Assembly (NCBI GenBank): GCA_043228905.1
Contig: JBHGNT010000004.1
Span: 19,220,001-19,284,000, forward strand
DNA length: 64,000 nucleotides
Direction of reading: 5' to 3'
Origin: Azolla caroliniana
Lineage: Eukaryota; Plantae; Polypodiophyta
Every line of letters starts with the position of its first letter. The first letter of the stretch is position 1. The translations under genes were made by a program, and so were the position numbers. This document shows, one piece after another, positions 7,905 to 64,000 of the stretch. The notes beneath the pieces were generated by a model that saw nothing but the letters and a program-made list of their open reading frames with translations, searched no databases and was not told the origin of the DNA.

Positions 7905-8438
7905 GAGGATCACCGGCGAGATGATACGAGGAAGGAACGGACAAAAGCTCACTCACTCTCTCTCTCTCATACACACACATAACTCACATCTCTTCCGCTT
8001 CACAAGAATCATATCCAATTCTTTACATCAGCCAGAGATATGGCTGACTTGGTTGCTCGTTCATATTCCTTATGGACTTCTACTAGTGCCTCATGTAAAG
8101 GAGGCATCTAGATGGCTTCTCCCCTATTTTTTGCGTTGCGCTGTTGGCTGATTCGGTTGACTTCCTGTTGTGAGGATCACCGGCGAGATGATACGAGGAA
8201 GGAACGGACAAAAGCTCACTCACTCTCTCTCTCTCATACACACACATAACTCACATCTCTTCCGCTTCACAAGAATCATATCCAATTCTTTACATCAGCC
8301 AGAGATATGGCTGACTTGGTTGCTCGTTCATATTCCTTATGGACTTCTACTAGTGCCTCATGTAAAGGAGGCATCTAGATGGCTTCTCCCCTATTTTTTG
8401 CGTTGCGCTGTTGGCTGATTCGGTTGACTTCCTGTTGT
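7905..8438. repeat. 267-bp tandem duplication (7905-8171, 8172-8438)
   Basis: Both copies run gaggatcaccggcgag...ttcctgttgt and appear identical. Confidence 0.92.
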
Positions 8439-9272
8439 TCTTCTGGCTCCACAACACCAATCAATGATTTTTGGAACATGATTCGATCCTTGTGTTCTTG
8501 TGCCATTCTTTCTGACACTTCCTGTAATCTATGTGCTAACCATAGGAGATACCAAATTGTAGAATGGCTGCTAGCTCATGCGTCGCTGGAGGTATTTCAG
8601 GAAAGCCCACTGCTTCTTGAGGGCATGTGACTGATGATTTTCCTTTTTCAATCCAACTCGTGTCTTCTGGGTTGACCCGAGTCTCCGATCAAGGTTGTTC
8701 ATCTGTTCTTTGCTTCTTCTTTAGAGATTCTTCTTGCTCATCCTATTGAAATCTTTGTGACTTTTGTTTTGCTCGACACACCCTTTCTCCAATTGTTTGA
8801 ATCAAAACTTGCCCTGGTGTCGGTGTTGGTTGTTCGGTGCTTGAGCTTGGTGGAGTTGATATTAGGGTTGGGTTTGGAGCTGGGGTTGTAGGTGGAATTG
8901 ATGTTGGCCTAGGAGACTGTGTTGTCAGAATAGGTGAGGCCGCAGATTCCTGTTGTCAGATTGGTTCAGACTGATTGCCCTCGATAGGTGTCGATTCGGA
9001 TTCGTGCCATTCTTCTCTTGGCACTTGCTACTTGGCCCAGTGTACCGACTGTTTCCTTGCCGGCGTTGGCTCGTTTTGTCGATTTTCCGAACTTGATGTC
9101 AGATATAGAACGGCCAACCATTGAGCAAAGATGGTCTTCATCGGTTTTCCTTTCTGTACCGTCGTTAGCTGCTCCCGAAGTGCGTCGGCTGTTAAGAGGC
9201 CCCAATAAAAAAATTCCCCTTCATACGTTGCTATAATAAATCCTGCTTGTTTTTTCGGCATACAATAAAACC
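7950..9272 (-). pseudogene. Distal part of the extra 3' ORF of the gypsy at 38017-44539
   Basis: RFYCMPKKQAGF...WGLLTADALREQL...KGKPMKTIFAQWLAVLY resembles EGRKIWHAVAQWLTLLA at ~63955-64000 and plausibly continues from ...FLLEIAF at ~38020. Confidence 0.6.
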
Positions 9273-9448
9273 TAGTAGTTGTTGGCCGTATGGCCTAAGC
9301 AAGGAGTGCGAGCGTATAACCTTCGACGGTTGAATAGTTAGGTTAAATAGTATGGTACCTAAAGAATAATATAAAAGAGAATAGTAGGGGAGGAGAAGAG
9401 AGAGAGAGAGAGAGAGAGAGAATTCAAATTTCAATTTATGTAAGAAAA

Positions 9449-9501
9449 GGTCTTTTGGCAAACATGTTTTGCTCTATATGAGCTCATCAATGCTAAAGAC
9501 C
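9449..9501 (-). ncRNA. Type I hammerhead ribozyme, decayed copy in the 3' pLTR
   Basis: GGTCTTTAGCA-tTGATGA-GCTC ATATA GAGC-aAAA-CATG-TT-TGCCAAAAGACC; stems I and II pair, two core substitutions. Confidence 0.8.
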
Positions 9502-10038
9502 ATATACAAAAATGTGAGAGGCTTATATAAGGGAAGATGAAAGAAGAGAGAAGGGGAGTGGTGGGAATGGATAAGAGGGAGAGAGGGGTTTTGAATGTGT
9601 ATAAATGAGGATGTGGGAGTTAGGGAGGTAGTGAATGTAGAGAGGGATACCCTAATGAGTTTGATGGGAAGGGATGATTTGGGGATCTATTATATTTAGT
9701 TCTAATAGATAGATAACAATACATAATAAGTGTGATGTTTTAATGGGGATTTGGGGATCTAATATATTTAGTTTTGACTAGATAAGAATAGAGTGATTTG
9801 GACTTGGTGCAACATATGAAAGGCTTAGGAATGTCTTTTAGTTGGGGATGTAGGCTATGGTTGGCGTGTAAGTCTTGTAAAAACGAGTGGATGCCTAATT
9901 TAGGGGAGATTTTAGAGTACTTAAGCTTGAATATGGTAGGTGTAAGGGAATATTTGTTTTTATGCTTATGGATGAGAGTATTCCTAAGGAAGAAATGATG
10001 TTTTTTAAAGGCTTTAAGGATGAAATGGGGTGGGTAAC

Positions 10039-19970: not shown

Positions 19971-20502
19971 GTGGCGGAAAACTCAGCGGCCACAACGACT
20001 GGCTCACCTCCATTTCTTGCCCCATCATCGATGGGTACATGATTGTCTCTGCTTCTCGAGACAAGTTTCTTGTTGTGTGGTCCCTCACCTGAGACGAAAA
20101 CTATGGCAATACAAAGAAACGCCTCACAGGTCATGGTCACTTCGTATAAGATGTTGCCATCTCTTCTGATAGGAAGTTTGCTCTATCAGTATCAGGGAGC
20201 TAGGATGGAGAGCTTCATCTGTGGGATCTCTACTCCGGTGCCACAAACCGCCGATTCACTAGACACTCTAAAGACGTTCTGAGCGTTGCCTTCTCTGCAG
20301 ACAATCGTCAGATCGTTTCCACATCGAGGGATCGATTCATCAAGATTTGGAACACTCTCAGCGAGTGCAACTATACTATCCAAGAGGGAGATGCACACAC
20401 CGGCTGAGTATCATATGTTACTTGTCACCTGTTACTGCGAATCCTATAATGGTTTATGGTTCATGGGACAAATATGTGGTGTGGAACCTTAATAACCTTA
20501 AA
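19971..20502 (+). pseudogene. RACK1: Captured 5' fragment of RACK1 (WD40), frameshifted
   Basis: [96 protein letters not shown]. Confidence 0.93.
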
Positions 20503-36466: not shown

Positions 36467-36603
36467 GTGATATGTTGAATCTTTAGTAGTTGTTGGTCGT
36501 ATGGCCTAAGCAAGGAGTGCGAGCGTATAACCTTCAGCGGTTGAATAGTTAGGTTAAATAGTATGGTACCTAAAGAATAGTATAAAAGAGAATAATAGGG
36601 GAG

Positions 36604-36643
<40 letters not shown>

Positions 36644-36665
36644 AATTTCAATTTATGTAAGAAAA

Positions 36666-36718
36666 GGTCTTTTGGCAAACATGTTTCGCTCTATATGAGC
36701 TCATTAGTGCTAAAGACC
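36666..36718 (-). ncRNA. Type I hammerhead ribozyme in the 5' pLTR
   Basis: GGTCTTTAGCA-CTaATGA-GCTC ATATA GAGC-GAAA-CATG-TT-TGCCAAAAGACC; one core substitution. Confidence 0.85.
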
Positions 36719-36778
36719 ATATACAAAAATGTGAGAGGCTTATATAAGGGAAGATGAAAGAAGAGAGAAGGAGAGTGT

Positions 36779-37707
36779 TCTCACGAATGGGTGGAATGAG
36801 GCTAAGTACTAAGAGAGAGTGAGAGCATAAGCAAGATCACAAGATTGTCAAGGACAAGTAGACAAGGCTCAATATTAAGAGATAGCGGGAGAGAGAGCAT
36901 AGACAAGAGAAGAAGCAAGAGAGAGGATAGACAAATAAACAAGAATTGTATATGCTTTTGTAATTGGTGTTGTTCACCTTGACTGTAATCAAGGTGCACC
37001 CCAGTATTTATACAAGAATGTGGAGGTATGCATGAAAGCTAGAAGACTTCTAGAGAGTGCATGGAAACTTCTAGAGAGTGCATGAAGATGCATTCTCTAG
37101 AAGGTTCTCGAAAGTTCTAGTGATCAATCTATAATGAAATAAGTTGAGTCTTACACAATACAATAATGCATAGATGGACGTAGCTCAATTGGTAAGGTTG
37201 CACAATAAGACCAGAAGGTCATGGTAAAGACAGGATGCCACATGGAATGGTGGGGGTTGAAACCATGACCTTCTGGTCTTATTGGGCAACCTTACCAATT
37301 GAGCTACGTCCATATATGCATTATTGTATTGTGTAAGACTCAACTTATTTCATTATAGATTGATCACTAGAACTTTCAAGAACCTTCTAGAGAATGCATC
37401 TTCATGCACTCTCTAGAAGTTTCCATGCACTCTCTAGAAGTCTTCTAGCTTTCATGCATACCTCCAAATTCTTGTATAAATACTCAGGTGCACCTTGATT
37501 ACAGTCAAGGTGAACAACACTAGTTATGAAAGCATATACAATTCTTGTTTATTTGTCTATCCTCTCTCTTGCTTGTTCTCTTATCTATGCTCTCTCTCCC
37601 GCTATCTCTTAATATTGAGCCTCGTCTACTAGTCCTTGACAATCTTGTGATCTTCTTATGCTCTTGCTCTCTCATAGTACTTACCCTCATTCCACCCATT
37701 CGTGACA
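36779..37707. mobile_element. Palindromic element made of two head-to-head chromoviral LTR copies
   Basis: Arms ~36779-37225 and ~37262-37707 are inverted repeats; ends TcTCACG/CGTGACA; TSD agtgt/agtgg; arms resemble LTR 47987-48428. Confidence 0.88.
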
Positions 37708-37825
37708 AGTGGTGGGGATTGATGAGAGGGAGAGAGGGGTTTTGAATGTGTATAAAGGAAGATGTGGGAGTTAGGGAGGTAGGAGAGATACCCTAATGAC
37801 CTTTTCTTACATAAATTGAAATTTG

Positions 37826-37900
<75 letters not shown>

Positions 37901-38016
37901 TCCCCTACTATTCTCTTTTATACTATTCTTTAGGTACCATACTATTTAACCTAATTATTCAACCGTTGAAGGTTATACGCTCGCACTCCTTGCTTAGGCC
38001 ATACGGCCAAAAACTA

Positions 38017-41000
38017 CAAAAGCAATTTCAAGTAGGAATTTGGTGACTTCATGGAAGAACTCATCCTCCTCGCCCTGTGTTTTATATGTGTTGGCCTACG
38101 GAGAGTATTCTCCGAAATATGATCGCAGCATCTCATTATCCATTTTCTAAACTACATCAAAACCCTCTTTTTTCAAGTTCATCAATCGACGTACCTATTT
38201 GTTAGTTATCTTGGCGATGTCGATCCTCTGAATCAATTCTGTGGCACGCGGATGCGGCTCCGAATCCGCCACTTGAAGATATCCCTGAAGTCCTTTGTTG
38301 CCCAGTCACTCTCGAAGGTTATCAAATACAGGGATCGGCATGGTGTCGTTCTCGTCAGAGATGTCTGATGTCTGTAGTGATGGTGATGACGGCTTTTGAT
38401 TGCGAAGACACGGAGAAGAAAATTTCTTAGCTCTAAAAAACTTCTGTGTTTGTGGCGATAGAGAACATGAGTTATTAGGTTTTAAAGAAATTAGGTGTTT
38501 CATGATGTCTAGGGAAAAGGGAATATACTATTAATGATAGTACTAGTCTTCAAATAGTAATAATAACTCCACCACTCGTAATAACTATTGCATGATTTGT
38601 GACCATGTAACTTATAGTCTGAAAAAGACCATGCCAAGAAGTCTTCATGCAAAACAGTTACTTCTGTTATATTTTTGTCAAGATTTTATTATTATTATTA
38701 TTATTACTATTTACATTTGTGGCCTATACCAGGTCACGTTGCGTTGGTTTGTTTTTCAACTTGAAAGGGATTTTCCGGCATCGCGCCCTGAAAAGGTTTG
38801 AGTCGAAAACCGTTAAACCATTTTGGTAAAATTTCCCCTGATAACGTACCATTCTTGCTATCAACAATCCAGAACGGCCACGTCCACCGGAATCGAAGTT
38901 TTCTGGGCATAGACCCCATTTTAGTTTGGAAAACTAAAACTAATTTTCTGATTGTGAATTGCTTTTCTTTTTGTCGTCTATGTCGGTCTACGAATGCCTT
39001 TGTTTGTCATTGTTTTTGCTCTAGTGTTGACATTGCTTGAATTCGACTTTCCTCTAACAACAATAATTGTTGTTTCTGAACTTGTTCCTACTTTACTTTG
39101 TCTAATCTTTCGGTAACTTGTATGCGGAGTGTCGGAACTTGAAATTCTATTGGCATTACTGCCTCTAATCCAAATGCCATCCTAAATGGAGTGGATTTAA
39201 TAGTTGCTTTATATGATGTACAATAGGCCCATAAAGCACTATTTAGCTTCTGGTCCCAATCTGTCCTATTCTCATTCACTATTTTCTTCAGAATCATTTG
39301 CAGTGTTTTATTTGTGGATTCTACTATCCCATTAGCTTGAGGGTAGTATGAAGTACTTTTCTTATGTACTACTGCATAATATGTTGATAATTCATGTATA
39401 ATTTTATTAATGAAATGAGTACCTTGGTCGCTTACTAATTCGATAGGACACCCGAATCGACACCATATATTTTCATATAAGAATTTAGCTATTGACGTTG
39501 CCGCATTATCTCGCAAAGGTTTAGCCCCAACCCATTTTGTGCAGTACTCCGTAGCGACTATGATATATCGATTCCCTGTCCGTACCGTTGCTGGTTTAAA
39601 TGTACCGACAAAATCTAGTCCCCATTTTTGAAACGGTTCTAAGGGCAATACAGGTTGAAAAGGCATTCTATCCTTTTCTATTGGTTGTCCGATTTTTTGG
39701 CATAATTCACATTGTCGACAATATTCGACTACATCTCTTGTTGTTGTCGGCCACCATAACCCACTATTCCATATTTTCTTGGTCGTTGCTTCCCCTGCAT
39801 AATGTCCACCCGCGACACCACTGTGAGTTTCCCGTAGGATTGCTTCTTTCTCGAACTGTCAAACCGTGTGTTGCCAAATTCCATCCGCCCCCTTGTGGTA
39901 TAGAGTGTCGTTTAGGAGACAAAAATTTCGACTTCGAACCACTAGTCGTTTCCTTTCATCTATTGACATATGATCGGGTGGTAACCCTGTTGTGAGGAAA
40001 ATTGTCATTTCGGTTATCCACGCATCAGATGTTTCATCATTCATCTCGTGAACCGGTACTGGGTTGACCCAAAAAAGTTGTCCATCTGGAAAATTGTCTT
40101 GTATTCCTGTTCCTTCTTCTCCCAACTCTAAATGGCTAAGGTAGTCCGCCACAGCATGTTGTACCCCTGGTCGATGAAGGATGTCGAATTCAAACTCTTG
40201 AAGTAGCAACGTTGATCTTGCTAATTTGCCTGTAAGTTCTTGCTTTGAGACTAAATACAGTAAAGCAAAATGATCGACATGAAAGGTGAACTTCCGTCCC
40301 AAAAGGTAATGTCTGAATTTATTAATATTGTACACCATTCCCAAAGCTTCCCGTTCTGTTGTTGAATAATTCCGCTCAACTGTGGAAAGTTTCCGACTAG
40401 CGTAATATACCGGCCTATACCAGTTCAGTTCCGACAGCTGCATTAGGGAGCTCCCAATTGCTACATCTGATGCATCAACAAACACATGAAAAGATTTGTT
40501 CCAATCAGGAGGTTGCACAAATGGAACTTTCGAGAGCATTTTCTTTAGATAGCTATACGCATCTTGTTCAACCGTCGTCTACTGGAAAGGTGTTCTATGT
40601 ACCGTTGTATGCAACAGTATTGCAACATTAGCAAGGTACCTCATCATCTAACTATGCCATCTTATTTGTCCTAAGAACCAACTAAGAGCTTTTGCATTTG
40701 TTGGTGTTGGTGCCTCCATTATTGCTTTAACTTTATCTGGGTCTACTACTATGCCTTCTTGACTCACAATATGCCCCAATAAGGCGCCAGTTGTCACTCC
40801 GAATGCACATTTAGCCGGATTTAGGCTAAGCCGACCTTGTCGACAACGTTCTAGGCACAATCTTAAATGTTCAAAGTGTTTTGTTTTCCGATTGTAAACA
40901 ACAAAATCATCTAGAAAGATTTGCATGAACGCAGGAATATAATTATTAAAAATTTCTTGTATTACCCTTTGAAATGTGGTAGGAGCCATTTTTAACCCAA

Positions 41001-44000
41001 ACATCATTACCACTACCACAAATACTCCCCATTCCGTTACAAAAGTTGTTTTTTCTTGATCATCTAGATGCATTCTTAGTTGATTGTAACCACTGAATCC
41101 GTCTAAAAAACTATAAACTTCGTGTCGTGCCACTGCATCCAGGACTTCATCGGAAAAGGGTAATGGAAACGCATTCGTTACCGTAGATGCATTAAGTTTC
41201 TGGTAGTCGACACAAACCCGAATTTTGCCATTTTTCTTTGGCACCACCACTATTGGACTTAACCATGTTGCCTTTTTAACTGGTCTGATGAATCCGACTC
41301 GGAGTAATTTATCAATCTCTTCTTTCACTTTGACTGCATAGTTTGGGTTTAACCGATAGTGTCGTTGTTGTACCGACTTTGCTTCCTTCTGAAGATTGAT
41401 TTAATGCTGACAAAAGACTGGATCTAATCCTTTCATGTCTTCAAATGACCAGGCGAATACATCTTTATATTGTTTGATTAAGGCTATGAGTCGTTCTTTA
41501 TCAGATGATAACATTTCTTTGGCAATCAGTACAGTTTTTGGCTCAAACTCCTGACCCTCGTCAGCCAAATTTATTTCTTCTAATGCTGAAGCCTGAACTC
41601 TTTGAGATACCTGCATTTCTTTTTCTGTAGCTTCTTGTTGGAGATGAATCTCCTTCATCGTTTGATCATCTATTGGAATGTTGTTGTGCTTATCATCGAC
41701 ATACGATGTAAGAGCTTGCAAAATGTCGACCTCAAACAAAGGAATAATTTTTGGATTGTCGTTAAAATAGTGATTTTCTTCTGTCTCATCCAATCCTTCC
41801 ATCATATTGACAGCTTCTGCATGTATTGGCAGACATTGTCGATTTGTACTGACCTTATCTTGAGTGGATATCTTAATTTTATTTTTTCCTTTTCGGAATG
41901 TTAATATATTTTTATTCCAGTTCTGCTTAATACTTGAAGTCTTTAACCATGGTCGGCCCAATAATAAGGGATATGCTCCAGGAGCCTCCAATTGAAGCAC
42001 TACTGCTAATATTTGAAAAATATGTCCCCCCAGGATTACATCCAGCTGTCGGATTAAACCCAGTGGCCTAACCGTGCTGGTGTCGTCCATACGTAACCAA
42101 AATGGGCATGCATCCCATTTAGTAATACCTATCTTGTCACGGGTGATTTTATTGATAACATTCACTCCCAAGCCGTCGTCGACAATTGTCCCGGCTATCT
42201 CATGTCCAGGAACTATTACTTTTATTGATGGGTTTTGTTCATCCATAATTGTCAAACCACTGCTTGGGTGACTATAATTAACGGATATCTGTCTAATCCC
42301 TTTTTGTGCAATCAGAGTTGTTACCTTCTCTGTGAACCGTGGAACTAGTTTCAGTAAGTCGGTCAAAGGCAATGAAACTTAACAATCCATCAAAATTTTC
42401 GAAGCTTCTTCTTGCTCTTGTAATGGAACTGAGCTTGTGTTCCCTGACTGGGTCCTTATTGCATATTTCATTATCCTGCAGCATTCTAGAAACATTATTT
42501 TTGTTAGCTTCTTCTACCCATTCTTTAGTTGCTTTTCGAACAGCGTCTTGGACTTCCCATTCTGGTTGCTTACCCTTGCTTCGAGTGGTGACCTATTGAA
42601 TCTCGGGAGCCACCATATTAACAACAAGTGCTTTCCCCTTGTCCCTAGTTGGACATTGGTTTGCATAATGGCCATTTTTCCTGCAAATGTAGCAATTTTG
42701 GATTGATGAACCACTAGCCTCACCATGTTCATATTGTGGTCTACCAGCTTCGTTGAAATCTGAGTTCTCCCTTTGGAAATCATGTTGAAATTGCCTAGAT
42801 GCTTTTGGCTTATTAAATTTCTTGTTGGGTGGCCGATTATTCTGTTTGCAGTTTTCCTGATAACAACCCCCTCTATATTGTTGCCAGTGACCGTTTTCTC
42901 GAGGTGGAGAAGAATCTTGATCCCAATTATTGCGATCATCCCTTCGATAAGTGTTTTGTCGATCCTCTTCTTGACTTGAATCATATTTATTGGTTCGCCT
43001 GTAATCATTTTGATTATTATCGTTATTCTATCGTCAAGACTCATTCCGCCGATCTGAATAATATATGTTACCATACCGATCTGTTAGTGAACCTACTTTG
43101 CTTGTCCTTATAAGAATCCTCTGGATGAATTTGTCTCATAGAGGTTGTCGCATTATTGAGCAAATTGTATTCACATTGCTCTACAGAATGAGCTTTGGAA
43201 TTACATATTGTGCAATGAGTGTGTAGAGTGCATTCGATTGTTGAATGGCCAGTGTTGAGACAAGTTGTACATTGTACTGCTTGTCGAAATTGTGACTCTT
43301 CTAAGGTCGGCAAATTATTGTTTAGTGCTGACAAATCCATACTTTTCTTATTCTTGTGTGTTTGATCCATAGCAAGTGCTTTATCAATCACTTGATCAAT
43401 TGACTGATTCCGGAAATCGAATACTGCTAGAGTTGTCCGCAATAGGTCACGGATTGCTTCTAAGAATATATCTTTCAATTCCTCATCTAGAATTGTCTTT
43501 GAAATTTGAAGTTGCAAATTTTGAAACCAAATAACGAATTGTGATACTGTTTCATGTGGTTCCTGATAAGATGCATAGAATTGAGCGATCAAATCCTTCT
43601 AAGGGATTTGTTGATGAAATAATTGGGTGAATTTAGTGGTTAATTGTTCGAATGTATCGAACGCTTGTAAGCCATTTTGTTGAAACCAATTTGTTGACGC
43701 CCCATCCAATGATAAGACAAACTCGGCAATTTTAGACTTATCTTCGGCTGCTGCCAACAGTCTCTGAGCTCCATGGTTTATTTCCCATGTTGTCAAAAAA
43801 TCCCTAATATGCACTTCCGCATCAGCGTCATCTCGATATTTCGAGTAAGGGTAAGGCATATTGTCGTCACCCTAGATATCGTAAAATGATACCTCTTCAG
43901 ACTATTGGTCATCGGAATAATCGTCGGTTAAGTCGAGAATTGAAGACCACCTCCCACCCCTGATTGATGTATCCAAACTAGACGACATCCATTCGACTCG

Positions 44001-44539
44001 TTCTCTGTTGTATGCAGATGTAACTGGGCGTGCCAAAATTTACTGTGTTGTTCGGCCGACAAACGACTATTTGTGACCGACAGACAATAATGTCGAGCGT
44101 TCTGTGATGAACGTTCTATCAAAGAACTATGGAATATGAATGGATTATACTGGATTAATCGTAACCTACGATACTGTATTCGTATCATGATCGACTATTT
44201 TAGTTAGTACAGTTATAGCATAACAGCATTATAGAGAACAATATTATCGACACAAGTGCTCAGAATTCCTATAACTAAAAACTATATTAACTGAAAACAG
44301 ATGATAGTATTACAATGCTTTCGGTTCCTTTTTATAGGTAACCTGAAGACTTCCTCATCAAGAACTATATTTTGCCTTGTCGGCAAGAACTACAAAATAA
44401 CTAACTTAAATATTTGTAATTATTATTTGTCGGCAAAATTGTTGACTCATCGATCCGCCTAGTTTATTCAACTCCGACTTTGTAGTTTCCGAACCTTGTC
44501 GACTTCGACACTTTCAACTCATTCCTTGACCAGCTAACA
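38017..44539 (-). mobile_element. Decayed non-chromoviral Ty3/gypsy (OTA/Selgy-like, no extra RNase H seen)
   Basis: LTR ~44046-44539, PBS TGGCACGCCCAGT 44023-44035 (tRNA-Arg), gag with three CCHC knuckles, protease IVDDGLGVN, RT FLDDF, RNase H VDASD/EREAL, integrase WGLDFVG/SDQGTHF, extra ORF ~38020-38500. Confidence 0.9.
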
Positions 44540-48428: not shown

Positions 48429-49719
48429 GGGAGGGAGAGGAGTCTGAAACTAGATTGAGTTGTGGATGGGGTATTAGAGAAGTTAGGTCCATTCATTGGA
48501 AAGGATGTGACCCGATTTTTGCAGGTGTTCGATGCAAAGATGTTACATCGCAATATTCCTGCTAATTTGAAGAAATCCAACTTCCATCGTGGTAGCTGTC
48601 GATGTTCTTCCTATCATAGAAGAGCTTCAGACGCAAGATGTTGAATGGGAGGTATTCTGTCGTGATCTACTCGGTGTTTTCAATTGTGCTGATTCCACCA
48701 AGATGACCTTGCGGGCATTTGAAGCTTGGGTGAAGTTGGACAAGAAGCATGGGTCAGTTCTAGAGACCCTTTTTTATTTTGAAGCAAAGTTCCGACAACT
48801 CTCAGTTCGGGAGCAAACTTTGCTTGAACCAGAGAAGGTGGTTCTCTTCCTTCGCTTGGTTCCCTATGCGGATAGGGTAGAGCTAGGGAAACTTATGGAA
48901 TCAGGTGAAACTAAAACAGGTTTACAAGAGGATTGGTGCCGAATTCGGTCCATCTGCCTTCGATATGAGAAAAGATGAACATGGTTGGGCTCGAAGGGAC
49001 GTGGAAATGTTACTCTAACCTCCTCTTTGAAGACAAGAACAAGGATCGAGGCATATATGGAGAAACCACAACCAGGTGACGTAGATGAGTTGGTGAAGCA
49101 ATTCATGGAGTAGAAGATTTCTTCCATGTCGAAGGTGCAACTCAGCCACAAGTGCAACGAACTCTTCCGACTAGGGATTTTCGATGCTTATGGTGTGACA
49201 GTTTGGAGCATCGAAGATCGGAGTGTGTGGAGCATCAGGAGGCTATGCAAAAGAACCTCATATTCTACAAGGATCAGTTGATCCACTCATATGTGAATCG
49301 TCAACCACTAAACACAAATTTTGGGCGAGGAGGAATGAAAAAGGTCTTGGAGGAAGAAGAGCTTCGACATGCATAAGCTATTTTCCATTCTACTTCGGCT
49401 GCTATTCGACTAATTAAAATGTCAAAGCAAGATCCAACTATTCAAACTGTTCGTATTGAAGATGGTTGTCAAAGGACTGGTTGGAGTGATCCAACTTTTC
49501 CCACAAATTATGATGTGATGGTAGAGGAGAAGAGGAGGAGAGAGGAAGAGTTGGATCATGAACGAGTTCTAAAGAGGGCTGATTTTCTTTCTCCATCTGA
49601 ATAGCAAAATTTGGACATACAAAGGGCTGAACCAAAACCTGTACATGTATCCAAGAAGTTGTTGGGATTTCGGTCCCTCCGGATGGGATGTCCGGAGATG
49701 AATGACGGCAAGCCCGGTT

Positions 49720-49855
49720 GCGGTTACGGAGCCGGATGATGAAGACCCCGGTTACGGAGCCAGATGATGAATACCCCGGCTACGGAGCCGGATGATGAAG
49801 ACCCCGGTTACGGAGCCGGATGATGAAGACCCCGGTTACGGAGCCGGATGACGAA
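49720..49855 (+). repeat. 29-bp tandem repeat (~4.5 copies) in LTR U3; same array at ~54492-54627
   Basis: Unit cggttacggagccggatgatgaagacccc. Confidence 0.9.
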
Positions 49856-50347
49856 TGTACCCGGAGAGAGATCCGGATGCGGGGACATATTTGTGAATAT
49901 GTTTGCCAAGGGCCCTTGAGGCTATATTTGTAAATAGCCCGAAAGTCATCTGTGTATAAATATGACTTAGGGCAAACAGTTTTAGGTGGTCGCTCATTTT
50001 TCTGATTTCACCTAGAGAGAGCGAAGAGAGCAGCCGCGAGAGAGAGAGAGAGACGAAGAGGTCGTTGCCTCTGTGTATTGCCGCCGCCTGTGGCGAAGAC
50101 AGTGAGCTCAAGGTTGTTGCCTTGAAGCTTCACCATTGTACATCCCTGTTCATAGTGATAGTTGGAGTTTGAGGACTCCCGTGGTTTTTCCCATTTAGGG
50201 TTTTCCACGTAAAATATCCTGTGTACTCCTCTCTCTATAGTCTTCGTGTACTTTGTATTTCCCATTTTCGGAGAGTTGATCCTATTCCTCGGTTGTGGCC
50301 GAGCACCGTTTGCAACAAACTGGTATCAGAGCGAGTTGTTGCAGAAA

Positions 50348-53300
50348 ATGGAAGGCGGCGGCAGCGGGCAGCCGGGGATGATGGTGCTGAATGCGCAGAA
50401 TTACGCCGACTGGAAGATCAAGATGGAGGATCTTCTGATTGTTCGGGACCTGTACGAACCGATTGACAGGTCGGAAATACCGAAAGGGGTACTTGAGTCG
50501 GAGTGGAAGCTCCTGAACCGGAAAGCCGTAGCGACGATCCGACAATATGTCGATGTAAGCGTCCTACAACATGTGGCGAACGACACCAACGCATATGAGA
50601 TGTGGAAGAAGCTGTCGGGCCTCTACGAGAGGAAGAATGCGTTGAACCGGACCTCCCTGATGAGGAAGATAGTGAACCTCAAGTATCGAGACGGCGAGAG
50701 TATGGTGGAACACGTAAGCACGTTCATGGGATTCGTGAACCAGCTTGCGGCGATCAAGTTCCCGTTGGAGGATGCAATGCAAGCCATCATCCTGATGTGT
50801 ACATTGCCGGACAGCTGGGAGAACTTGGTGGTGACTCTCAGCACCTCCTGCACCGAAGATAACTTGTCCTTACAAACGGTAAAGACAAGTATTTTGAACG
50901 AAGAAGCGCGTCGGAGAGATAAAGAACCGGCCTCCGACCCGAAGGCGCTGCTTACCGAATCGGATCGGGGAAGACAATGGAACCGGAGTCCGCAAAGACG
51001 GGAGAAGTCGGGGACCCGGTCGCAGTCAAGAGGAAGGCCCACATGCTTCCACTGTGGGAAGCCGGGGCACTTCCGAAAGAATTGTCGGCATTACCGAAAA
51101 GACAACGGAGCCGACGACACCGATTCGAAGAAGTCACCGGAGAGAAACGGTGCATACCGGGGAGCCACGGACCGGAGAGGTTCGGATCGGCGAGGGCAGG
51201 ACCGGAAAGGAACAACGGCACTCGCGGCAAGTGAGGAAGAAATCATGCTCATCACCGAAGAAGGTGAACTAAACGTTGCCGGCGATGAGACGACCTGGGT
51301 GGTCAATTCCGGAGCATCGTTCCACCTGACCCCGGAGAGAAGATACTTCTCATCCTACACAGCCGGTGAGCATGGCTGTGTTCGGATGGGAAATGAAGGT
51401 ACGTGCCGGATTGCCGGCATAGGAGACGTGTGGTTGACAACCCCGACCGGATGCAAAATGCTGCTGAAGGATGTCCGACACGTTCCGGAGGTTCGATTGA
51501 ACCTGATTTCGGCCGGGAGGCTAGACGATGAAGGTTATGCAGGTAGCATCCGGAACGGCGTAATGAAGTTCAGCAAGGGGAGCCTGATAGTGGCTCGGGC
51601 CCGGAAAGACAACACACTGTACCTAATGAATGCCCGGTTATGTCCGGAAGAGCTGAATGTGGCAGCCGACACTGCCGGTGAGCTGTGGCACAAAAGACTG
51701 TGCCACATGAGTGAGAAGGGGATGAAGAGGCTTGCAGAAGACAACCTTATCCCAGTGAAGCATGTGCACCTGGAGAAGTGCACCGATTGCCTGGCCGGTA
51801 AGCAGAACCGAACCTCCTTCCACTCAAGGCCACCGACGAGACGTAGCGCACCATTGGAGTTGGTGCACACTGATGTGTGTCAGGTAGAAACGAAGTCACA
51901 TGGCGGAGCCCAGTACTTCGTAACATTCATCGATGATCATAGCCGAAAACTGTGGACGGCACCGATGAAGACAAAGGACCAAGTGTTGTGCGTCTTCAAA
52001 GAACTCCACGCGAGAGTGGAAAGGGAATCCGGCAAGAAGCTGAAAGCGATACGAGCGGACAACGGAGGGGAATACCGGGGGCAGTTCCAGGAGTACTGTC
52101 GCTCGAAGGGAATCCGACTCGAGTTTACTGTGCCGAAGACGCCGGAACTGAACGGGCTGGCCGAGAGGATGAACCGGACCATAATGGAGAGGGTCCGGAG
52201 TATGCTGGCGCATGCAAAATTACCCAAGGGGTTTTGGGCTGAGGCAATGTCGACGGCGACATACGTGATAAACAGATCACCCTCAGTACCTTTGGACGGA
52301 GACACGCCGCAGAGAGTGTGGACCGGTAAGGAAGTATCCTACCGGCATCTGAAGGTGTTCGGGTGTCTCGCATATGTGCATGTGGCAAAGGACCGGAGAG
52401 GAAAGCTAGATCCAAAGACCCGGCCATGCATATTCCTCGGTTACGGCGACGATGAGTTCGGCTACCGAGTATGGGACCCGGTCGACAAGAAGATATTCAG
52501 GAGTCGAGACATCATCTTCATGGAGGACAAGACACTCGCCGACTGGGAGTCGGAGAAGAAGATGAAGAGCTCCAAGTCGACCGGTGAGGATCAACTCTAC
52601 AAGGAGCAGTCCCGACCGGCAAGGGACCGGTTAGCACTCGAGGATCCGGCCGAAGACGGTGAAGATACAGTACCGGCCGAAGAAGATGAAAATGATACCG
52701 GAACCGGCCCCGATCCCGAAATGAATTCGGATGAAGAAGAATCGGAAGAACCGGTTACCGAAGCTCCGGAACGGAGATATCCTCTAAGAGAGAGAAGGGC
52801 CCCCCGGAGATTTCCGGAACCAGAGCATGTGCTGCTAACCGACGAGGGGGAGCCGGAGAGCTTTGAAGAAGCAAAGCACGACACCCAAAGCCGCAGGTGG
52901 TTGAGTGCCATGCAGGACGAGATGGATTCCCTGCATGAGAACCACACATATGAACTAGTGGAGTTGCCAAAAGGAAAGCGGGCACTTCGAAACAAGTGGG
53001 TGTTCAAGCTGAAACCGGGAGATGCCGGAAACCCCCCGAGATACAAAGCCAGGATCGTGGTGAAGGGGTTTCAGCAGAAGAAGGGCGTCGACTTCGACGA
53101 GATATTTGCCCCGGTAGTGAAGATGACCTCCATCCGGACGGTGCTGAGCATAGCGGCAAGCATGAACCTCGAGGTAGAACAGATGGACGTGAAGACGGCA
53201 TTCCTTCACGGTGACCTCGAAGAAGAGATCTACATGCAGCAACCGGAAGGATTCGAGAAGAAAGGGAAGGAGCACCTGGTATGCCGGTTGAAGAAGAGCC

Positions 53301-54421
53301 TTTACGGACTGAAGCAGGCTCCCCGGCAATGGTACCGGAAGTTTGACTCCTTCATGACCGACGAAGGGTACCACAAAACGCAGTCTGATCACTGCGTGTT
53401 TGTGAAGAAGTTCGAAGGAGGAGACTTTCTAATACTCCTCCTGTACGTGGACGACATGTTGATCGTCGGACGGGACCAGGTCAAGATACAGATGCTGAAG
53501 AAGGCTCTTCACCGAACCTTCTCAATGAAGGACTTGGGTCCGGCGAGACAAATACTAGGGATGCATATCATCCGGGACCGGAGCAAGAAGCAGTTGTGGC
53601 TGTCACAGGAGAAGTACGTGACAAAGGTGCTTGAACGGTTCAACATGTCGGAAGCAAGACCGGTCGGGTCAACCCTCCCGGCAAACTGCAAATTGTCCAG
53701 CAAGCAAAGTCCCAAGACAAAGGCTGAGAAGGAGGATATGATGAAAGTACCATATGCCTCTGCCGTCGGAAGCTTGATGTACGCAATGGTGTGTACAAGA
53801 CCGGACATAGGATATGCAGTCGGAGCGGTGAGCCGGTACATGAGCAATCCCGGCAAAGAGCACTGGAACGCAGTCAAGTGGATACTCCGATACCTGAAGG
53901 GCACGGCAAACGTGTGCCTCCGATTCGGCTCCGGTAAGTCCGAACTCGATGGCTTCACCGATTCGGATATGTCGGCTGATGCAGATACCAGCCGGTCCAC
54001 ATCAGGTTATGTGATGACGTATGCAGGGGGAGCTGTTTCATGGCAGTCGAGGCTGCAGAAGACGGTTGCACTGTCAACCACGGAGGCGGAGTACATGGCG
54101 GCTGTTGAAGCCGGCAAGGAAATAATATGGATGAAGGACTTCATTAGAGAGCTCGGTATCCGGCAGGTGGAGTACCGACTCTACTGCGACAGTCAGAGTG
54201 CCATCCACCTTGCGAAGAACGCGGCCTATCACTCCCGGACGAAGCACATCCAGCGAAGATATCACTGGATCCGGGAAAGGATAGAAGACCAGGAGTTCGT
54301 GCTGACGAAGATCCACACGGACGAGAACGGCTCAGATATGCTGACCAAGGTGCTCACACCCGACAAGCTGGAAGCATGCCGGAAGAGGATCGGGTTGGAG
54401 AGACATCCCATGCCGAAGTGA
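50348..54421 (+). CDS. Copia Gag-Pol polyprotein with protease catalytic D>N
   Basis: First ATG after the PBS; CFHCGKPGHFRKNC, WVVNSGAS, WHKRLCH..CTDC, HTDVC/RADNGGEY/AERMN, YVDD, RNase H motifs. Confidence 0.95.
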   Translation: MEGGGSGQPGMMVLNAQNYADWKIKMEDLLIVRDLYEPIDRSEIPKGVLESEWKLLNRKAVATIRQYVDVSVLQHVANDTNAYEMWKKLSGLYERKNALNRTSLMRKIVNLKYRDGESMVEHVSTFMGFVNQLAAIKFPLEDAMQAIILMCTLPDSWENLVVTLSTSCTEDNLSLQTVKTSILNEEARRRDKEPASDPKALLTESDRGRQWNRSPQRREKSGTRSQSRGRPTCFHCGKPGHFRKNCRHYRKDNGADDTDSKKSPERNGAYRGATDRRGSDRRGQDRKGTTALAASEEEIMLITEEGELNVAGDETTWVVNSGASFHLTPERRYFSSYTAGEHGCVRMGNEGTCRIAGIGDVWLTTPTGCKMLLKDVRHVPEVRLNLISAGRLDDEGYAGSIRNGVMKFSKGSLIVARARKDNTLYLMNARLCPEELNVAADTAGELWHKRLCHMSEKGMKRLAEDNLIPVKHVHLEKCTDCLAGKQNRTSFHSRPPTRRSAPLELVHTDVCQVETKSHGGAQYFVTFIDDHSRKLWTAPMKTKDQVLCVFKELHARVERESGKKLKAIRADNGGEYRGQFQEYCRSKGIRLEFTVPKTPELNGLAERMNRTIMERVRSMLAHAKLPKGFWAEAMSTATYVINRSPSVPLDGDTPQRVWTGKEVSYRHLKVFGCLAYVHVAKDRRGKLDPKTRPCIFLGYGDDEFGYRVWDPVDKKIFRSRDIIFMEDKTLADWESEKKMKSSKSTGEDQLYKEQSRPARDRLALEDPAEDGEDTVPAEEDENDTGTGPDPEMNSDEEESEEPVTEAPERRYPLRERRAPRRFPEPEHVLLTDEGEPESFEEAKHDTQSRRWLSAMQDEMDSLHENHTYELVELPKGKRALRNKWVFKLKPGDAGNPPRYKARIVVKGFQQKKGVDFDEIFAPVVKMTSIRTVLSIAASMNLEVEQMDVKTAFLHGDLEEEIYMQQPEGFEKKGKEHLVCRLKKSLYGLKQAPRQWYRKFDSFMTDEGYHKTQSDHCVFVKKFEGGDFLILLLYVDDMLIVGRDQVKIQMLKKALHRTFSMKDLGPARQILGMHIIRDRSKKQLWLSQEKYVTKVLERFNMSEARPVGSTLPANCKLSSKQSPKTKAEKEDMMKVPYASAVGSLMYAMVCTRPDIGYAVGAVSRYMSNPGKEHWNAVKWILRYLKGTANVCLRFGSGKSELDGFTDSDMSADADTSRSTSGYVMTYAGGAVSWQSRLQKTVALSTTEAEYMAAVEAGKEIIWMKDFIRELGIRQVEYRLYCDSQSAIHLAKNAAYHSRTKHIQRRYHWIRERIEDQEFVLTKIHTDENGSDMLTKVLTPDKLEACRKRIGLERHPMPK

Positions 54422-57400
54422 AGGGGGAGTTTGTTGGGATTTCGGTCCCTCCGGATGGGATGTCCGGAGATGAATGACGGCAAGCCCGGTTGCGGTTACG
54501 GAGCCGGATGATGAAGACCCCGGTTACGGAGCCAGATGATGAATACCCCGGCTACGGAGCCGGATGATGAAGACCCCGGTTACGGAGCCGGATGATGAAG
54601 ACCCCGGTTACGGAGCCGGATGACGAATGTACCCGGAGAGAGATCCGGATGCGGGGACATATTTGTGAATATGTTTGCCAAGGGCCCTTGAGGCTATATT
54701 TGTAAATAGCCTGAAAGTCATCTGTGTATAAATATGACTTAGGGCAAACAGTTTTAGGTGGTCGCTCATTTTTCTGATTTCACCTAGAGAGAGCGAAGAG
54801 AGCAGCCGCGAGAGAGAGAGAGAGACGAAGAGGTCGTTGCCTCTGTGTATTGCCGCCGCCTGTGGCGAAGACAGTGAGCTCAAGGTTGTTGCCTTGAAGC
54901 TTCACCATTGTACATCCCTGTTCATAGTGATAGTTGGAGTTTGAGGACTCCCGTGGTTTTTCCCATTTAGGGTTTTCCACGTAAAATATCCTGTGTACTC
55001 CTCTCTCTATAGTCTTCGTGTACTTTGTATTTCCCATTTTCGGAGAGTTGATCCTATTCCTCGGTTGTGGCCGAGCACCGTTTGCAACAGAAGTCATCTC
55101 CAACATTTTGGATGCGGACCGAATTGGAACAAGAGGTAGATGTTTTCTCCTTCATTGTGTTCTAAAGCAACATATCTCGGTTCCATTAGAAACCTTGTTG
55201 GCGGTCTCCAAAAAGGAAGTTTAGGATGATTTACTGGAGAAGGTGCGAAGAAAGCGAATTATGGTTGATACAACAATGACTACAAAGGAGGTGGATGGAA
55301 AGAAGGATCTATACAAGTGCTGAAGCATGAAGATAATATTTCGAGGAGCAACTTTACTCAGAATCACTAGGCCTGGGCAACTATAGAAACGAAAGTACGA
55401 CTTGGTGGTTTATCGGAGGCAGTCATGGCTCTAATTGATAGTGGCTCGGAAATAAACCTCATTTCCTTGGAGGTTTACAAGCAAGGAGGGTGGACGATGA
55501 CTTCTGATCATCATTGGAGGATTTGAGCAACAACACAACCATCAGAGGAGTTATCGAGAGCTTGCCCAAACGTGGAAGTATCAATTGGTGGTGGTACTGT
55601 GCTTCAACATTTCTTTATTCAGGATATAGCCACATATCCATTTATATTGGGCCATCCCTTTATGGTTGTTGTCCGCATGGAGACCAAGGTATTGGATGAT
55701 GGATCGGCCTATGCTCGGATCAAAGATATGGATGGTGGAAGGACAGTGCAATTTCAAACAGTTCGACCTAATCACGAAAGAAACAAGGATAGTTTACATG
55801 TATCCTCTAATTAGGATTTTTAGATAAGACTATTGTAAAATAGGGCTATAATAGTTCGCGACAACAAAAGTCCATGTATGAGAATTATTGTTCCAGAAAT
55901 AATAAAGGTTATGTTTCTTATATTGGAGCAATCTCATTTTCTTCTGTTGATGATTTAAATCGTAAAAGCCAGGTAAATGTAGAAGACATTCGGGTGATGT
56001 TTCTTAAATATCGGATTCTGGAACTGGATGATCAAGTGTGAGGAATTATGGAGGAATTTTCCTTTGTGGATACCATTAGGGAGTTGGAAAATCCTTTGTA
56101 TTCAAATGAAGGTCAGTCATTTTTTATTCCGGCCAATTTAGTGGATATGTATGCTGAAATTGCAACATTTCGAAATCGACCCAAAGAGAGCCGATTTCAA
56201 AGGATGTTATCTCAACATTGTAAAGCCTTTGTTGTTTCACCTTCATGGATAGGTTGTGTGGACCCACAACTGGTGGAGCCAATGATTATCTTTATTGTCC
56301 CTCATATGCCTTGGAACTTGAAGCCAATTCCCGTTCCGAGAGCTCATATTCGGAAACTCATCGAGTTGCTAAAAGAGAAGGTGCATATGGGTATCTTGGA
56401 GCCTTCGAATGCTCCGTATTCTAACCGGTGGTTTACAGGGTAAAAAATGAACGGATCTCTCAGGTTCATTCAAGATCTCCAACCAGTTAACAAATATCAA
56501 TTCAGAATTCAGGAGTTGGTCCTGTCGTGGATTCCTTTGTAGGTAGAGCTATCTACTCCATGGCTGATTTGTATTCTGGATATGATCAATTTCAGCTTGC
56601 TATGGATAGTAGGGATATTACTACAATGCGTACACCTATTGGGTTGGTTCGAATGTGTACTTTACCACAAGGCCCAACTAGTTCTATCGCTCATATGATG
56701 AACGCAATGAATAAGGTGTTCAGGGATCACATTCCTCATCGAACAATGCCTTTCTTGGATAACATTCCGATTAAAGGATGTCTTGAAGAAGAGAAGGGTG
56801 AAGAAGTTGGGTCGGATGGATGTCGGAAATTCGTCTTAGATCATATAGCAGACTATGAAGACATATTGAAGAATTTAGAGGAGGCACATTTGACAATTTC
56901 TGGAGAAAAATCAAGTTTTGGTAGATCTGAAGTGCGGATTGTGGGACATTTGTGTGACCCCTATGGTCGGAAACCTGATCCAACCAAGGTGGACGGCATC
57001 AATGCAATGGAGGATATCTGCAAGTCAACATCAGAAGTAAGACGATTTTTAGGTGCATGTGTTTTATATCATATTTGGATTCCACATTTTGCACATTTTG
57101 TTGATCCCTTATATAAGTTATTACGGAAAGGACAAAGGTTTATATGGGAGGAGGAGCATACTCTGGCCATGAAGAAGATTAAGATACTTTTGTCATCTGC
57201 ACCAGCCTTGCGACAACCTATATATGAGCAAGGTCGACCTATCTTTGTGACTGTAGATGCAAGTCAGACTGGAATTGGATGGGTTATTAATGAAGAGGAT
57301 GAAACTGGAGATCGATATGTTATTCGGTTTGGAGCAAAGATTTTACATGATCAACAAAGAAAGTATGCTCAAATAAAGAGAGAGTTGTGGGGCATAGTTT

Positions 57401-59769: not shown

Positions 59770-61042
59770 CTAAATCTCTTGCAAACTCTCTTCAGCATAT
59801 CATCCCGAAACTAATGGCCAAGCAGAGCACACAAATCAAACACTTGAGCAGTATCTTCGATGTTTCATCAAGAATCAACAAGATGATTGGAGTCATATAT
59901 TGCATCTTGTAGAGTTTGCATACAATAACACCATACACTCTTCTACCAAGGTCACACCTTTCTATGCCTATACTGGCAACCATCCTCGATGGTGTCTCTT
60001 GGACATTCCAGTGATCTCACCAAACCCTAGTGCGGAGCAACACCTCTAGTCCGAGTTGTCTTCACATCTTCAGAAAGCTCAAGCCCAACATAAAGATCGA
60101 CATCGTCTTCCATCTCCATTCAAGGTTGGTGATTGGGTATAGTTGTTACGCCGTCACATAAAGACTACTCGACCATGTGATAAGCTAGATTATAAACGCT
60201 TGGGTCCTTTTGTCATCACGAAGCAGATTAATGATGCAACATTCCGTATTGATCTTCCTGCAAATTTGCGGCTTCATCCAGTCTTTCACAACTCTCTTTT
60301 GGAACCTTGCCACACCAGCTCGATTCCCAATCGTGTCATGCCACCATCACCTCCTCTCCAACTTGTTGATGGCCCAGAGTACGAGGTAACTGCCATTCTC
60401 AGAATAAGTTGTATTATCTAGTTGATTGGCTAGGCTATACCCCGCGCGATCGCACATGGGAACCCGTCGATAATGTTTGTAATGCTCAAGCTCTTATCAA
60501 TGACTTCCATCGTCGCTATCCAAACAAACCCGGCCCTGCATTGTTAACAACTCCTTCCACTCGTCGTTTAAGAGGAGGGATAGTGTCATGAATCCGTGAA
60601 CATTATGCTTCACCTAGACTTGAACCCAAGACTATGTCATGAACACATGACCATTATGGCGTCACCCGGACTTGAACCTCAAACCTTGTAATCCATAGTT
60701 GAAAACCTCAACCATTAAGATAGCTTATTGTCATATGAGAAAATAAAAGCTACTTTCTATATTACATTGATTATTGTAAAAACCCTAGATCATTCTAGAA
60801 TGTTCTAGAATGTCCTAGAACATTCTAGATATCTCTAAGCTATAGGAACCTATAAATAGGGGCATACATGTATCCTCAAATCAATTCGAATCAACACCAG
60901 TCTTTAGCTCCAAGCCCACCTTGTATCCAACTCATCCTTGTAATCATTCTATTCTAATAAACCCACTCTTCTCTTATCAATCCATTCTCCTCTCTTCTTC
61001 TATTCTCTTATACCTTCCTTCAATCGTTCAATCTCTTACTTT
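59770..61042 (+). mobile_element. Chromovirus 3' end: integrase tail, chromodomain, PPT and LTR from 60584, cut at 61043
   Basis: SSAYHPETNGQ, KLDYKRLGPF, EYEVTAIL..YYLVDWLGY..RTWEP, agaggagggatag then TGTCATG. Confidence 0.9.
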
Positions 61043-61488
61043 TGTTAATCCTTAGGGCCAGACAACAGCTTAACACAAGGTGTCCACTTAAGACACTTCA
61101 CCAAAGGGTGTTACGGCGAGATAACTTACGACACAACGCTTAATTGAACCTTAATTGGTTACTTAGCAATACGTCATTAACACGCGTAAGTTATACAATA
61201 AGCACAGAACGGTGAACAATACTCAATGATTAAACAAAAGGTTTATATTACTCTCCATTAATGACTACATTGTAACCGGGCCTTTATATAGGTCACCGGT
61301 GCGAAGTACAAAACGGTGCCAACCGACACCTATTCGAGATCGGTCCAGATCCGGATTGGCATACCGATTCCGGTCCGTCCGTCCACATCTTCTCATATAT
61401 TAATATATATATTAAGACTAGTAATTTCAACATATTCCCAAATAACAATTCCCCTTTTCACACCCTGGTCTTTGCCGGTCGGGTAACA
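61043..61488 (-). mobile_element. 3' LTR of a non-chromoviral gypsy extending beyond the window
   Basis: Similar to 1888-2337 in the same orientation; minus-strand extra ORF runs toward it. Confidence 0.85.
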
Positions 61489-61539
61489 CATGGCACGCCT
61501 GTGGGATAGTACCTTGTACGTCGAATCTCACACCGGCCC

Positions 61540-64000
61540 CTTACTCTTCGTTCAAGATATCCAATATGCTTTGCTCCAGGGTCTCCAGTGGCTCGACGGG
61601 AATTTGTTGTTGCTGTTGTGGTGGCTACTGTTGTGGCTGTTGCGGTGGCTGCTACTACGACTCCGGTTGTGACTTTGATTGTTGCTCTGGCACCGGCGTT
61701 TCCTTCGTTGTTTCCTCCAATAGCTTTGTATTCTCAGCCCGTTCGTCGGCGAGTGCCGTCGTGGCCCGATCAACTTCCTGCCGGAGCTCGGCCATCCTTT
61801 CCTGCTATTGCTTATGCTCCGTTGTCGTAGTGTATTTTGTACACTACGTGAAAAACTTATAAAGTACCGATTTAATAAATATGAATAAATAGTAGAAAAT
61901 ATTAAAATATATATAACATGCATAAGGCAAGATTCAAACCTTGCACCTCCATGTTAATAATGTAATGTCTTACCATTACACTAACATTTCATTCGTGTTA
62001 AAAAGTAGATGTCACACATAAAAAAGGTAAGTTCACATAGGATAAACTTTAGTTAAAAGAAAAACGCATGCTAAAAGAAAAATCTACGCATGCACATCTA
62101 GCGTGCATGAACACTATAGTTGATAAAAAACGCACAAGTTAGAAAAAGCATAATCACTTTAGATAAAGCATATAGGAAAAGCATGGAGTCTATAATTAGA
62201 GAAACGGCATGGGTTAGAAAAGACTCTCTCATCTCTATATAATGATGAGGAGCACAATGTAATGGGTGTGTGAAAAATATTTGGGAAATTAGATATATTT
62301 CCTAAAACACCAATTAATATAATCGTGGGATTCACAAAGTTTTATATAATCTACCTCTTCCAATTTATGATAAATTGTTATTAGGATTCTAAATATTAAT
62401 AAATCTAATAATCTATACTTGTGGAATTCACAAGTTTCTATCTCTCTTTCTAATAATCTATACATAACTATAAAATTGTCTCAAATTCTTCTTCCTCCTA
62501 GTCCAAAACCCCAGCGGTTCCCACTTGACTCACGCAACGATCCGATGCCGAAAGGCACGACACCGTGTCCAAACTCTATAAGTTCCGGTGCAGGTGGTCG
62601 AAGTCCTTTGTCTTCTGCTTCAGCCTCTGGTTGACTTGCCGGCGAGCGCGGTCTTCCCGGTCCTTTTGTTGACGGAGTTCTTCTTTCAGCCTTTCGATTT
62701 CCGTTTCCGCCATCCGTCGCAGCTTGTCCTTCTCCTGCAGCAATTTTCCTTTTTCCTCCTTTAGCCGGTCGTAAGCTTGATGCCCTTTCCGCAGATTTTC
62801 TTCTGCCCGGCGGAGGTTTTCAGCAGTCTTCTTTAACTCCTCTTCTGCCGCTTTCTTCAAATCTCGTTCGCGGCTCCGTAGTGCTTCTTGTGCGGCAAGT
62901 TTGTCCCTTAATTCGGCAAGCTCTTGGGCTTGCGTCGCATCTTTCTCCGGGACGGTTTTTGTATCCAAGGTCTTATTCGTATGTACAGGCGTGGTTGTTT
63001 CTTTATTCTGTACATCCACCGGAGTCACCGGTGCTTGGATCTGTGTTGCGGTTAAGGCCATTTTGGCCATGTCTTCTGTGACCCGATCCAAGTCTTGTTC
63101 AAGGCACCAGATCCTTGACCGGGCCGTCTCTAGTTCATCGGTTGTGACTAGCAACCGTTCCATCTGCGCTCGTTCTTCCGTCTCTACATACAGTATCACT
63201 CCGGCAACCTGCTCTCCTATCTACCAAAGCCATTGGCTGTCGGTGCCCTGTTGTTGCGTCTGCACGGAGGGTTGGCTAATGGGTTCACTTGCCAGTGGCC
63301 GGTCCCTCCTAACTCCGTCGAGCTGCAATTCCGTCTCTGCCTGCTGACCACTTTGTCGTTCCAGTTCTGGTTGTGTTTCGGTTGGCCGCTCTTGTTCTGC
63401 TTGTTCTTGGCCGGCTGAGGAAGGTAGCACATGCCTTACCGGCGCTTGCATTTCGGGGCTTGCCGTTTCTTGACCCGCTGGTAATGTTTGTTGTGTAGGG
63501 GCTTCTGAGACCAATTCCTTCCGATCCGGTTCCGGTTCCTCCCTTGGCGTGGGATTCTCAGTGTGGGGTAAAGGCGTTCCATCCTTCTGTGGGTCCGAAC
63601 GCTTCTTGGCTGATTCTGCGGTGCTCGTCGTCGGCCGCCGCTGGAGGTGCTCCGTAGGTTCTTCCTCTGTTTCCTCCTCCTGAGTCCCGGCATTCATTCT
63701 TGCCACCAGGGTGTCCGTTTCTTGCTGCACCGGTCGGCGGAGTGTGCCCTTCAGGGGCCATGCCGGTGTCTCCTCCTGCGTGTCCGTCGGCTGCTTCCGG
63801 ATAGCGTGCTCCTTCGCCGCCTGCTCCCTGTCGGTTGTCTTCCCCTTAGTGGTCTTGGTGGCCAACAACTGCTGTCGTTTTGAAGTAGCTTTCGGGGTGC
63901 TGTCCGTTACTCTTCCCCACTTCTTGGTCTGGACAGACTCGACAGGTGGCGCCAATAGGGTGAGCCATTGCGCCACCGCATGCCATATTTTCCGGCCTTC
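61540..64000 (-). pseudogene. Extra 3' ORF (low-complexity linker plus coiled coil), interrupted by an AT-rich insert ~61849-62485
   Basis: ORFs 63221-63976 and 62576-63199 (E/K/L/R heptads); AQWL motif shared with 9028-9261. Confidence 0.65.

Follow-up and report, generated by a model that had tools for sequence, protein, structure and literature searches.

The window, meaning the whole stretch of 64,000 nucleotides analysed here, carries two copies of the same long terminal repeat (LTR), located at 61043–61488 and 1888–2337, which are 77% identical and belong to a Ty3/gypsy family designated family A. In agreement with the sequence-only reading, the family is oriented towards the minus strand, as the repeat at 61043–61488, bounded by TG..CA ends, contains a canonical TATA box on that strand (61282–61292), the minus strand left of 1888 shows a 7-nt spacer, the primer binding site (PBS)-like TGGCGACT (1880) and then a broken gag, and the genes of the relatives all lie on the minus strand. 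By LTR comparison, 1888–2337 is the 5′ LTR of a second family-A copy, with the first-strand PBS at 1871–1880 and the broken gag, the intact homologue of which carries Retrotrans_gag and zf-CCHC, at 456–1860 (both minus strand). The same first-strand junction, a 7-nt spacer followed by TGGCGACCAC, is found in 9 of 18 family-A loci in metagenome contigs.

The broken gag is homologous to the gag of an element of a sister family, family B (39088–44539, minus strand), which consists of an LTR (44044–44539), gag, protease (PR), reverse transcriptase (RT), RNase H (RH) and integrase (INT). Its true PBS at 44023–44035 (minus strand) reports the host tRNA end that is also matched by the inverted site described below. 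The window copy of family B has a deletion at its U3 end, and contigs aligned to that end did not extend beyond the LTR; a search of 2337–9300 did not find the 3′ LTR of the family in the window. The extra open reading frame (ORF) of family B is present in two consecutive pieces, 7905–9264 and 38015–38407, equivalent to residues 63–188 and 194–248 of the family-A protein; they flank a 28.7-kb segment, possibly a large DNA-transposon-like insertion, whose ends at 9273 and 38022 are inverted. A palindromic element with 393-nt arms (96%) at 36481–38022 has its ends in common with 9273–9560.

Right of 61488 the plus strand reads CA (61489–61490), followed by TGGCACGCCTGTGGGA (61491–61506), just as had been claimed from the letters. 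The inverted site as a whole comprises 17 nt (61491–61507), with one gap compared to the 18-nt tRNA end and two C>T changes in this copy, and is presumably a match to the 3′ end of plant tRNA-Arg(UCU). The gap of 1 nt is fixed in family A. The tRNA match is interrupted by a 13-nt insert with a 4-bp hairpin (GTAC/GTAC, 61508–61520, plus strand) and resumes in a second segment complementary to the T loop and T stem (61521–61531, plus strand), as judged against a proxy tRNA whose choice is circular. The strand which becomes minus DNA thus presents 17 nt of tRNA-tail complement, the hairpin insert and TCGAATCCCAC fitting the T loop and T stem. The tRNA match ends exactly at CCA, 2 nt from the LTR; this spacing is the same in all 11 fetched copies and in the distant relative L019, and the host flanks of other LTR copies start at the same LTR end that bounds the site.

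The window copy of the inverted site is a decayed form, since in four of four public runs the depth reads C at 61500 and 61507 (92–99% of contig depth), with C at 61500 read by 75–102 contigs per run. The bins over 61475–61524 are among the deepest in all four runs, and depth drops more than 10-fold just behind; the runs, one of which may be the source sample, carry four organism labels and stem from three studies, and depth does not equal copy number. The usual form of the site, TGGCACGCCCGTGGGAC, occurs in 9 of the 11 fetched copies and, once a single gap is introduced, matches the true PBS of family B (44023–44035) in 12 of 13 positions, which bears out the proposed closeness of the two. 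The 9-mer TGGCACGCC occurs twice in the window, in the inverted site and in the family-B PBS, compared to 0.14 expected occurrences, and none of 100 shuffles contained two. A chance match was rejected on the strength of these shuffles, the run depth, the recurrence at 11 of 17 LTR copies and the layout of L019.

Relatives of family A were sought by scanning metagenome contigs with a 24-nt motif inside the LTR, the site itself being excluded from the query, which yielded 18 loci on short-read contigs, apparently from one campaign. Seventeen loci have a visible U3-side flank, and among these the inverted site is present in 11, while the other six flanks (five distinct) are unrelated, as expected of 5′ or solo LTRs. 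A normal polypurine tract (PPT) in other copies would have counted against the sequence-only reading; none of the 17 visible flanks combines family sequence with a PPT. Both junctions, PBS and inverted site, surround a single LTR in 7 of the 18 loci, which reflects either assembly collapse or tandem copies.

A single contig, L014, unites on one strand the LTR, the inverted site, the extra ORF (about 1000 aa), integrase, RNase H, RT, protease and gag, and L018 contains the same parts in circularly permuted order. This order identifies the sequence right of 61488 as the 3′ end of an element on the minus strand and 61043–61488 as its 3′ LTR, as the sequence-only reading had assumed. That reading had also named a plus-strand gag-pol right of 61488, with a PPT at its far end, as a finding that would speak against it; gag-pol lies on the minus strand in both L014 and L018, and this candidate was dismissed. 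The reason originally given for the 3′ LTR, an extra ORF running into the repeat, does not hold: the ORF ends at a stop (61541–61543), 52 nt short of the LTR. In the window the ORF (61541–64000, minus strand; about 1000 aa if intact) is interrupted by a stop and by an AT-rich insert of 744 nt (61820–62563), and it has also suffered a deletion. A Pfam search of it gave no match, and Atlas leads to Transposase_32/ATHILA/PMD stayed below the bar. The gag-PR frame of L018 is open directly from the PBS, almost without a 5′ leader. A search of viral contigs gave no relative, and pattern scans of five genome sets gave no further element.

The family-A copy at 61043 sits at the end of the LTR of a neighbouring chromovirus-like element, and the possibility was considered that it is a solo LTR inserted at the PBS of another element. 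This was rejected, as a target duplication is lacking and what lies to the left is itself a 3′ LTR with its own PPT, a normal tract at 60570–60584 (plus strand) by purine-run comparison. That element, together with four copia elements of the window, served as a control for the PPT position. In the last 20 nt before the LTR the longest purine run is 3 in 10 of 10 ends of the lineage, compared to 7–12 in five of five control elements, so the claim that the inner edge of the 61043 repeat is devoid of a purine tract extends to all lineage ends available, and the PPT-type plus-strand signal that is standard for a Ty3/gypsy LTR retrotransposon is missing from them. A displaced PPT was discarded as well: within 300 nt of the lineage 3′ ends only purine runs of 7–10 were found, none adjacent to the LTR.

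The site is the best conserved part of the 3′ region. Nine copies were compared, namely the one in the window and those of 8 site-bearing loci, which remained of the 11 after removal of three near-duplicates of L018. Spacer and site together reach a mean pairwise identity of 0.95, the adjoining 13 nt 0.92 and the 11 nt after these 0.84. By comparison, the value is 0.69 at the LTR end, 0.61 in the remainder of the 3′ untranslated region (UTR) and 0.73 at the ORF end. Coding constraint was rejected as an explanation, because in family A the site is non-coding, lying within the 52 nt that separate the stop of the extra ORF from the LTR. The replacement of the PPT by an inverted tRNA-like site in otherwise ordinary Ty3/gypsy elements is confirmed as conserved and lineage-wide. 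It is improbable that the site binds a tRNA or a tRNA fragment for another purpose, such as packaging, end definition, guidance of RNase H or as a decoy for small RNAs, with plus strands started from unspecific RNase H fragments, or that it is the relic of a captured piece of tRNA. Capture of a tRNA 3′ half would account for the T-arm likeness; a relic, however, should not exceed the LTR and the ORF in conservation, and precise LTR ends need a precise primer end, which fits the CCA lying exactly 2 nt away in both families with a visible 3′ end, family A and L019, the only two of this kind.

L019 was found by a pol-alignment search of prokaryote assemblies, among plant contaminants. It is a full-length element with LTRs of 1.65 kb (93% identical) and a pol 59% identical, and it has no LTR similarity to the window. 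As in L014 and L018, gag-PR-RT-RH-INT lies on one strand between direct LTRs. The inner side of its 5′ LTR reads CT and TGGCGACTCCGCTGGGGA, an 18-nt PBS. Inside its 3′ LTR, in inverted orientation, stand CT and TGGCACACCTGGTGG; a hairpin comes next, a PPT is absent, and the T-arm segment is only 5 nt long. The PBS is the exact complement of the iPBS primer 2395 as given in Table 1 of PMC7798630. The target-site duplication, typically 4–6 bp in Ty3/gypsy elements, is imperfect in this one full-length copy, with agreement at 3 nt, or at 4 if one indel is allowed. L019 (contig C10 of G001) lies in a species-representative metagenome-assembled genome, where some 26 kb of plant retrotransposon DNA adjoin bacterial DNA, and plant Gypsy contigs are present in many other prokaryote assemblies.

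With CT+TGG inside both LTRs, L019 is symmetric, in a layout as in family A. This symmetry is what would be expected if the site were a real PBS on an antisense transcript started in the 3′ LTR, so that copying could proceed from either RNA or from both RNAs packaged together, and a tRNA/RNA duplex would in addition be safe from RNase H. Such a route would however require a second promoter and a second R region, of neither of which there is a sign, and a single strand carries every gene together with the canonical TATA box; the route is thus hardly to be expected. The sequence-only reading had named it as an alternative to the proposal that both strands are tRNA-primed: of these two suggestions, replication from either transcript found no support, while dual tRNA priming is retained as the best reading.

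A quick tree was built from 63 of 70 RT-RH-INT rows, the other 7 having been removed on grounds of coverage; references for Phygy and Selgy were not among the rows. In this tree, family A, family B and L019 form one clade of 10 rows with an SH-aLRT value of 100. Athila-type rows, labelled from PBS and host names, and rows with an added RNase H form separate clades, each with 100, such that the lineage does not group with Athila. A looser group (93) joins the lineage clade with proteins of Marchantia and Riccia. The catalytic motifs of RNase H are present in the clade. The RT thumb motif, GQIRWH in the L018 pol, has H in 9 of 9 clade rows versus Y in 32 of 33 others. The thumb helix of Ty3 affects RNase H activity according to passages of PMC5371799, and the change may, as a lead, be linked with the loss of the PPT.

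Compared to known systems, the lineage shares with Ty3, in the parts of PMC5371799 that describe it, minus-strand priming by a tRNA at the PBS, the order gag-PR-RT-RH-INT and TG..CA LTRs, whereas the plus strand of Ty3 is primed from an RNase H-resistant 12-nt PPT. With Athila, as portrayed in passages of PMC6317226 and the ATHILAfinder preprint (10.64898/2026.03.20.713144), it shares the lack of an added archaeal RNase H, a spacer of several bases between LTR and PBS and an extra ORF after pol, which in the lineage has a weak Atlas likeness to Transposase_32/ATHILA; in contrast, the conserved PPT junction and the tRNA-Asp/Asn PBS given for Athila in the same passages are both absent from the lineage. 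A PBS presumably of the tRNA-Arg type, which is dominant in Ogre and TatIII, and extra ORFs are shared with Tat/Ogre/Retand, but these are defined by an added RNase H in the corresponding section of PMC6317226 and fall into a separate clade; no RVT_3/RNase_H match to an added archaeal-type RNase H was obtained in the pol of L018 or L019. Phygy and Selgy, compared by description as summarized in PMC6317226, are likewise non-chromoviruses of non-seed plants without added RNase H, but are shorter, have a tRNA-Trp or tRNA-Ala PBS and no extra ORF. Of the Phygy features (tRNA-Trp PBS, no extra ORF, NCGN target), the lineage departs by its different PBS and its 1000-aa extra ORF, and of those of the chromovirus Tcn1 (chromodomain after integrase, self-priming), by giving no chromodomain match and by possessing a tRNA-type PBS.

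The PPT is treated as the general or standard plus-strand primer of LTR retrotransposons and retroviruses in passages of PMC5371799, PMC6696364, PMC6317226 and PMC11963269, and the survey of plant elements lists PBS types per lineage, the PPT side not being surveyed in its relevant passages (PMC6317226). The open-access literature searched contained no description of a tRNA-primed plus strand or of a PPT-less element. If shown, the priming route would be new, in otherwise ordinary Ty3/gypsy elements.

The layout LTR – PBS – gag-PR-RT-RH-INT – extra ORF – inverted site – LTR is best read as dual tRNA priming, because the checks for a PPT and for a plus-strand gag-pol gave neither and because an unrelated family of the same clade repeats the layout. 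On balance, the arrangement slightly favours that a second host tRNA primes the plus strand in this PPT-less, non-chromovirus Ty3/gypsy lineage. With similarly modest preference, a whole clade of LTR retrotransposons in non-seed plants may have dropped the PPT and would use two different host tRNAs to prime both strands of its cDNA, the second of them on single-stranded DNA by way of a bipartite site, as the first retroelement with a tRNA-primed plus strand. One tRNA would prime the minus strand at the ordinary PBS, and RNase H would clear the RNA and expose the bipartite site on minus DNA, the 17 nt plus the T-arm segment with the hairpin looped out. The second tRNA, which we take to be tRNA-Arg(UCU), would anneal to the exposed minus DNA and be extended through 2 nt into U3. 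Its removal by RNase H would leave an end of CA plus 2 nt to be trimmed by integrase; CA plus 2 nt is identical at both ends of L019. The chief difficulty is that a tRNA paired with DNA forms an RNA/DNA hybrid, by established knowledge a substrate that RNase H could cleave.

A bipartite tRNA site has precedents on the first-strand side. The split after the 18th tRNA base resembles the bipartite PBS of Ty1, as outlined in passages of PMC5371799, and the bipartite sites of Ty1 and Ty3 lie on the RNA and serve the first strand, the second PBS segment of Ty3, near the 3′ end, being complementary to the tRNA on the RNA (PMC5371799, same passages). Unlike in Ty3, the RNA of the lineage is identical to the tRNA tail, and consequently only the opposite strand can bind a tRNA. 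Beyond the family-B PBS (43992–44035, minus strand), a T-loop-like match is seen about 22 nt further on, with 6 of 500 shuffles as good, hinting that first-strand sites could be bipartite too.

A plant tRNA gene was found neither in the window nor in the 39 + 14 loci, the five genome sets or open-access papers. The proxy used instead is a viral tRNA-Glu with a similar tail; its pairing across the two segments surpasses that of all 500 shuffles, a result which describes geometry only, as the proxy was found by a pattern built from the site and the pairing score is circular. On the element's own RNA no acceptor-stem partner was found beside the tail, the nearest being 111–198 nt away, and the site is therefore no folded mimic of a tRNA. 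Compared to shuffles, the hairpin region shows no excess stability (z about −2.2 to +1.5), and an Rfam search of the site region gave no tRNA match. Pairing of U3 with the 3′ UTR in a larger stem was also considered and rejected, as the folding energies did not exceed those of shuffles.

A further explanation, rather unlikely but less so than the other rivals, is priming of the plus strand in cis: a fragment of the element's own RNA with CCA at its end would escape RNase H and stand in for the PPT, with RT reading it as it would a tRNA end. Position and 2-nt spacing suit a PPT-type primer, no new molecule would be needed, the hairpin could protect the fragment, and the clade-specific H in the RT thumb can, as a lead, be read in this direction. 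Against it, the vicinity offers no partner for an acceptor stem, RNase H by established knowledge treats a mixed pyrimidine-rich hybrid as an ordinary substrate, and the explanation does not account for the fact that two unrelated families keep a tRNA-like tail of 15–17 nt while differing inside.

The PPT-less lineage, present in high copy, shows that RT can start the second strand in a way other than from a PPT, and it lends itself to testing by what means an RNA primer paired with DNA is spared by RNase H and how an LTR end is defined. Should priming by a second tRNA be true, silencing by tRNA fragments could target both strands, and annotation tools based on the PPT would miss or mis-orient such elements, which would account for possible misreadings by structure-based tools.

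Other features of the window include a PBS-like motif, presumably of the tRNA-Trp type, followed by a plus-strand gag-like ORF at 6703–7689, possibly of a Phygy-like element. By eye, a decayed WD40 gene fragment, which we assume to be RACK1-like, lies at about 19990–20480 between long TACA-rich simple repeats. Two intact copia elements, 11200–16723 and 49659–55089, are recent insertions: the LTRs of the first are 100% identical and its ORF has 1367 aa, and those of the second are 99.8% identical, with an ORF of 1402 aa.
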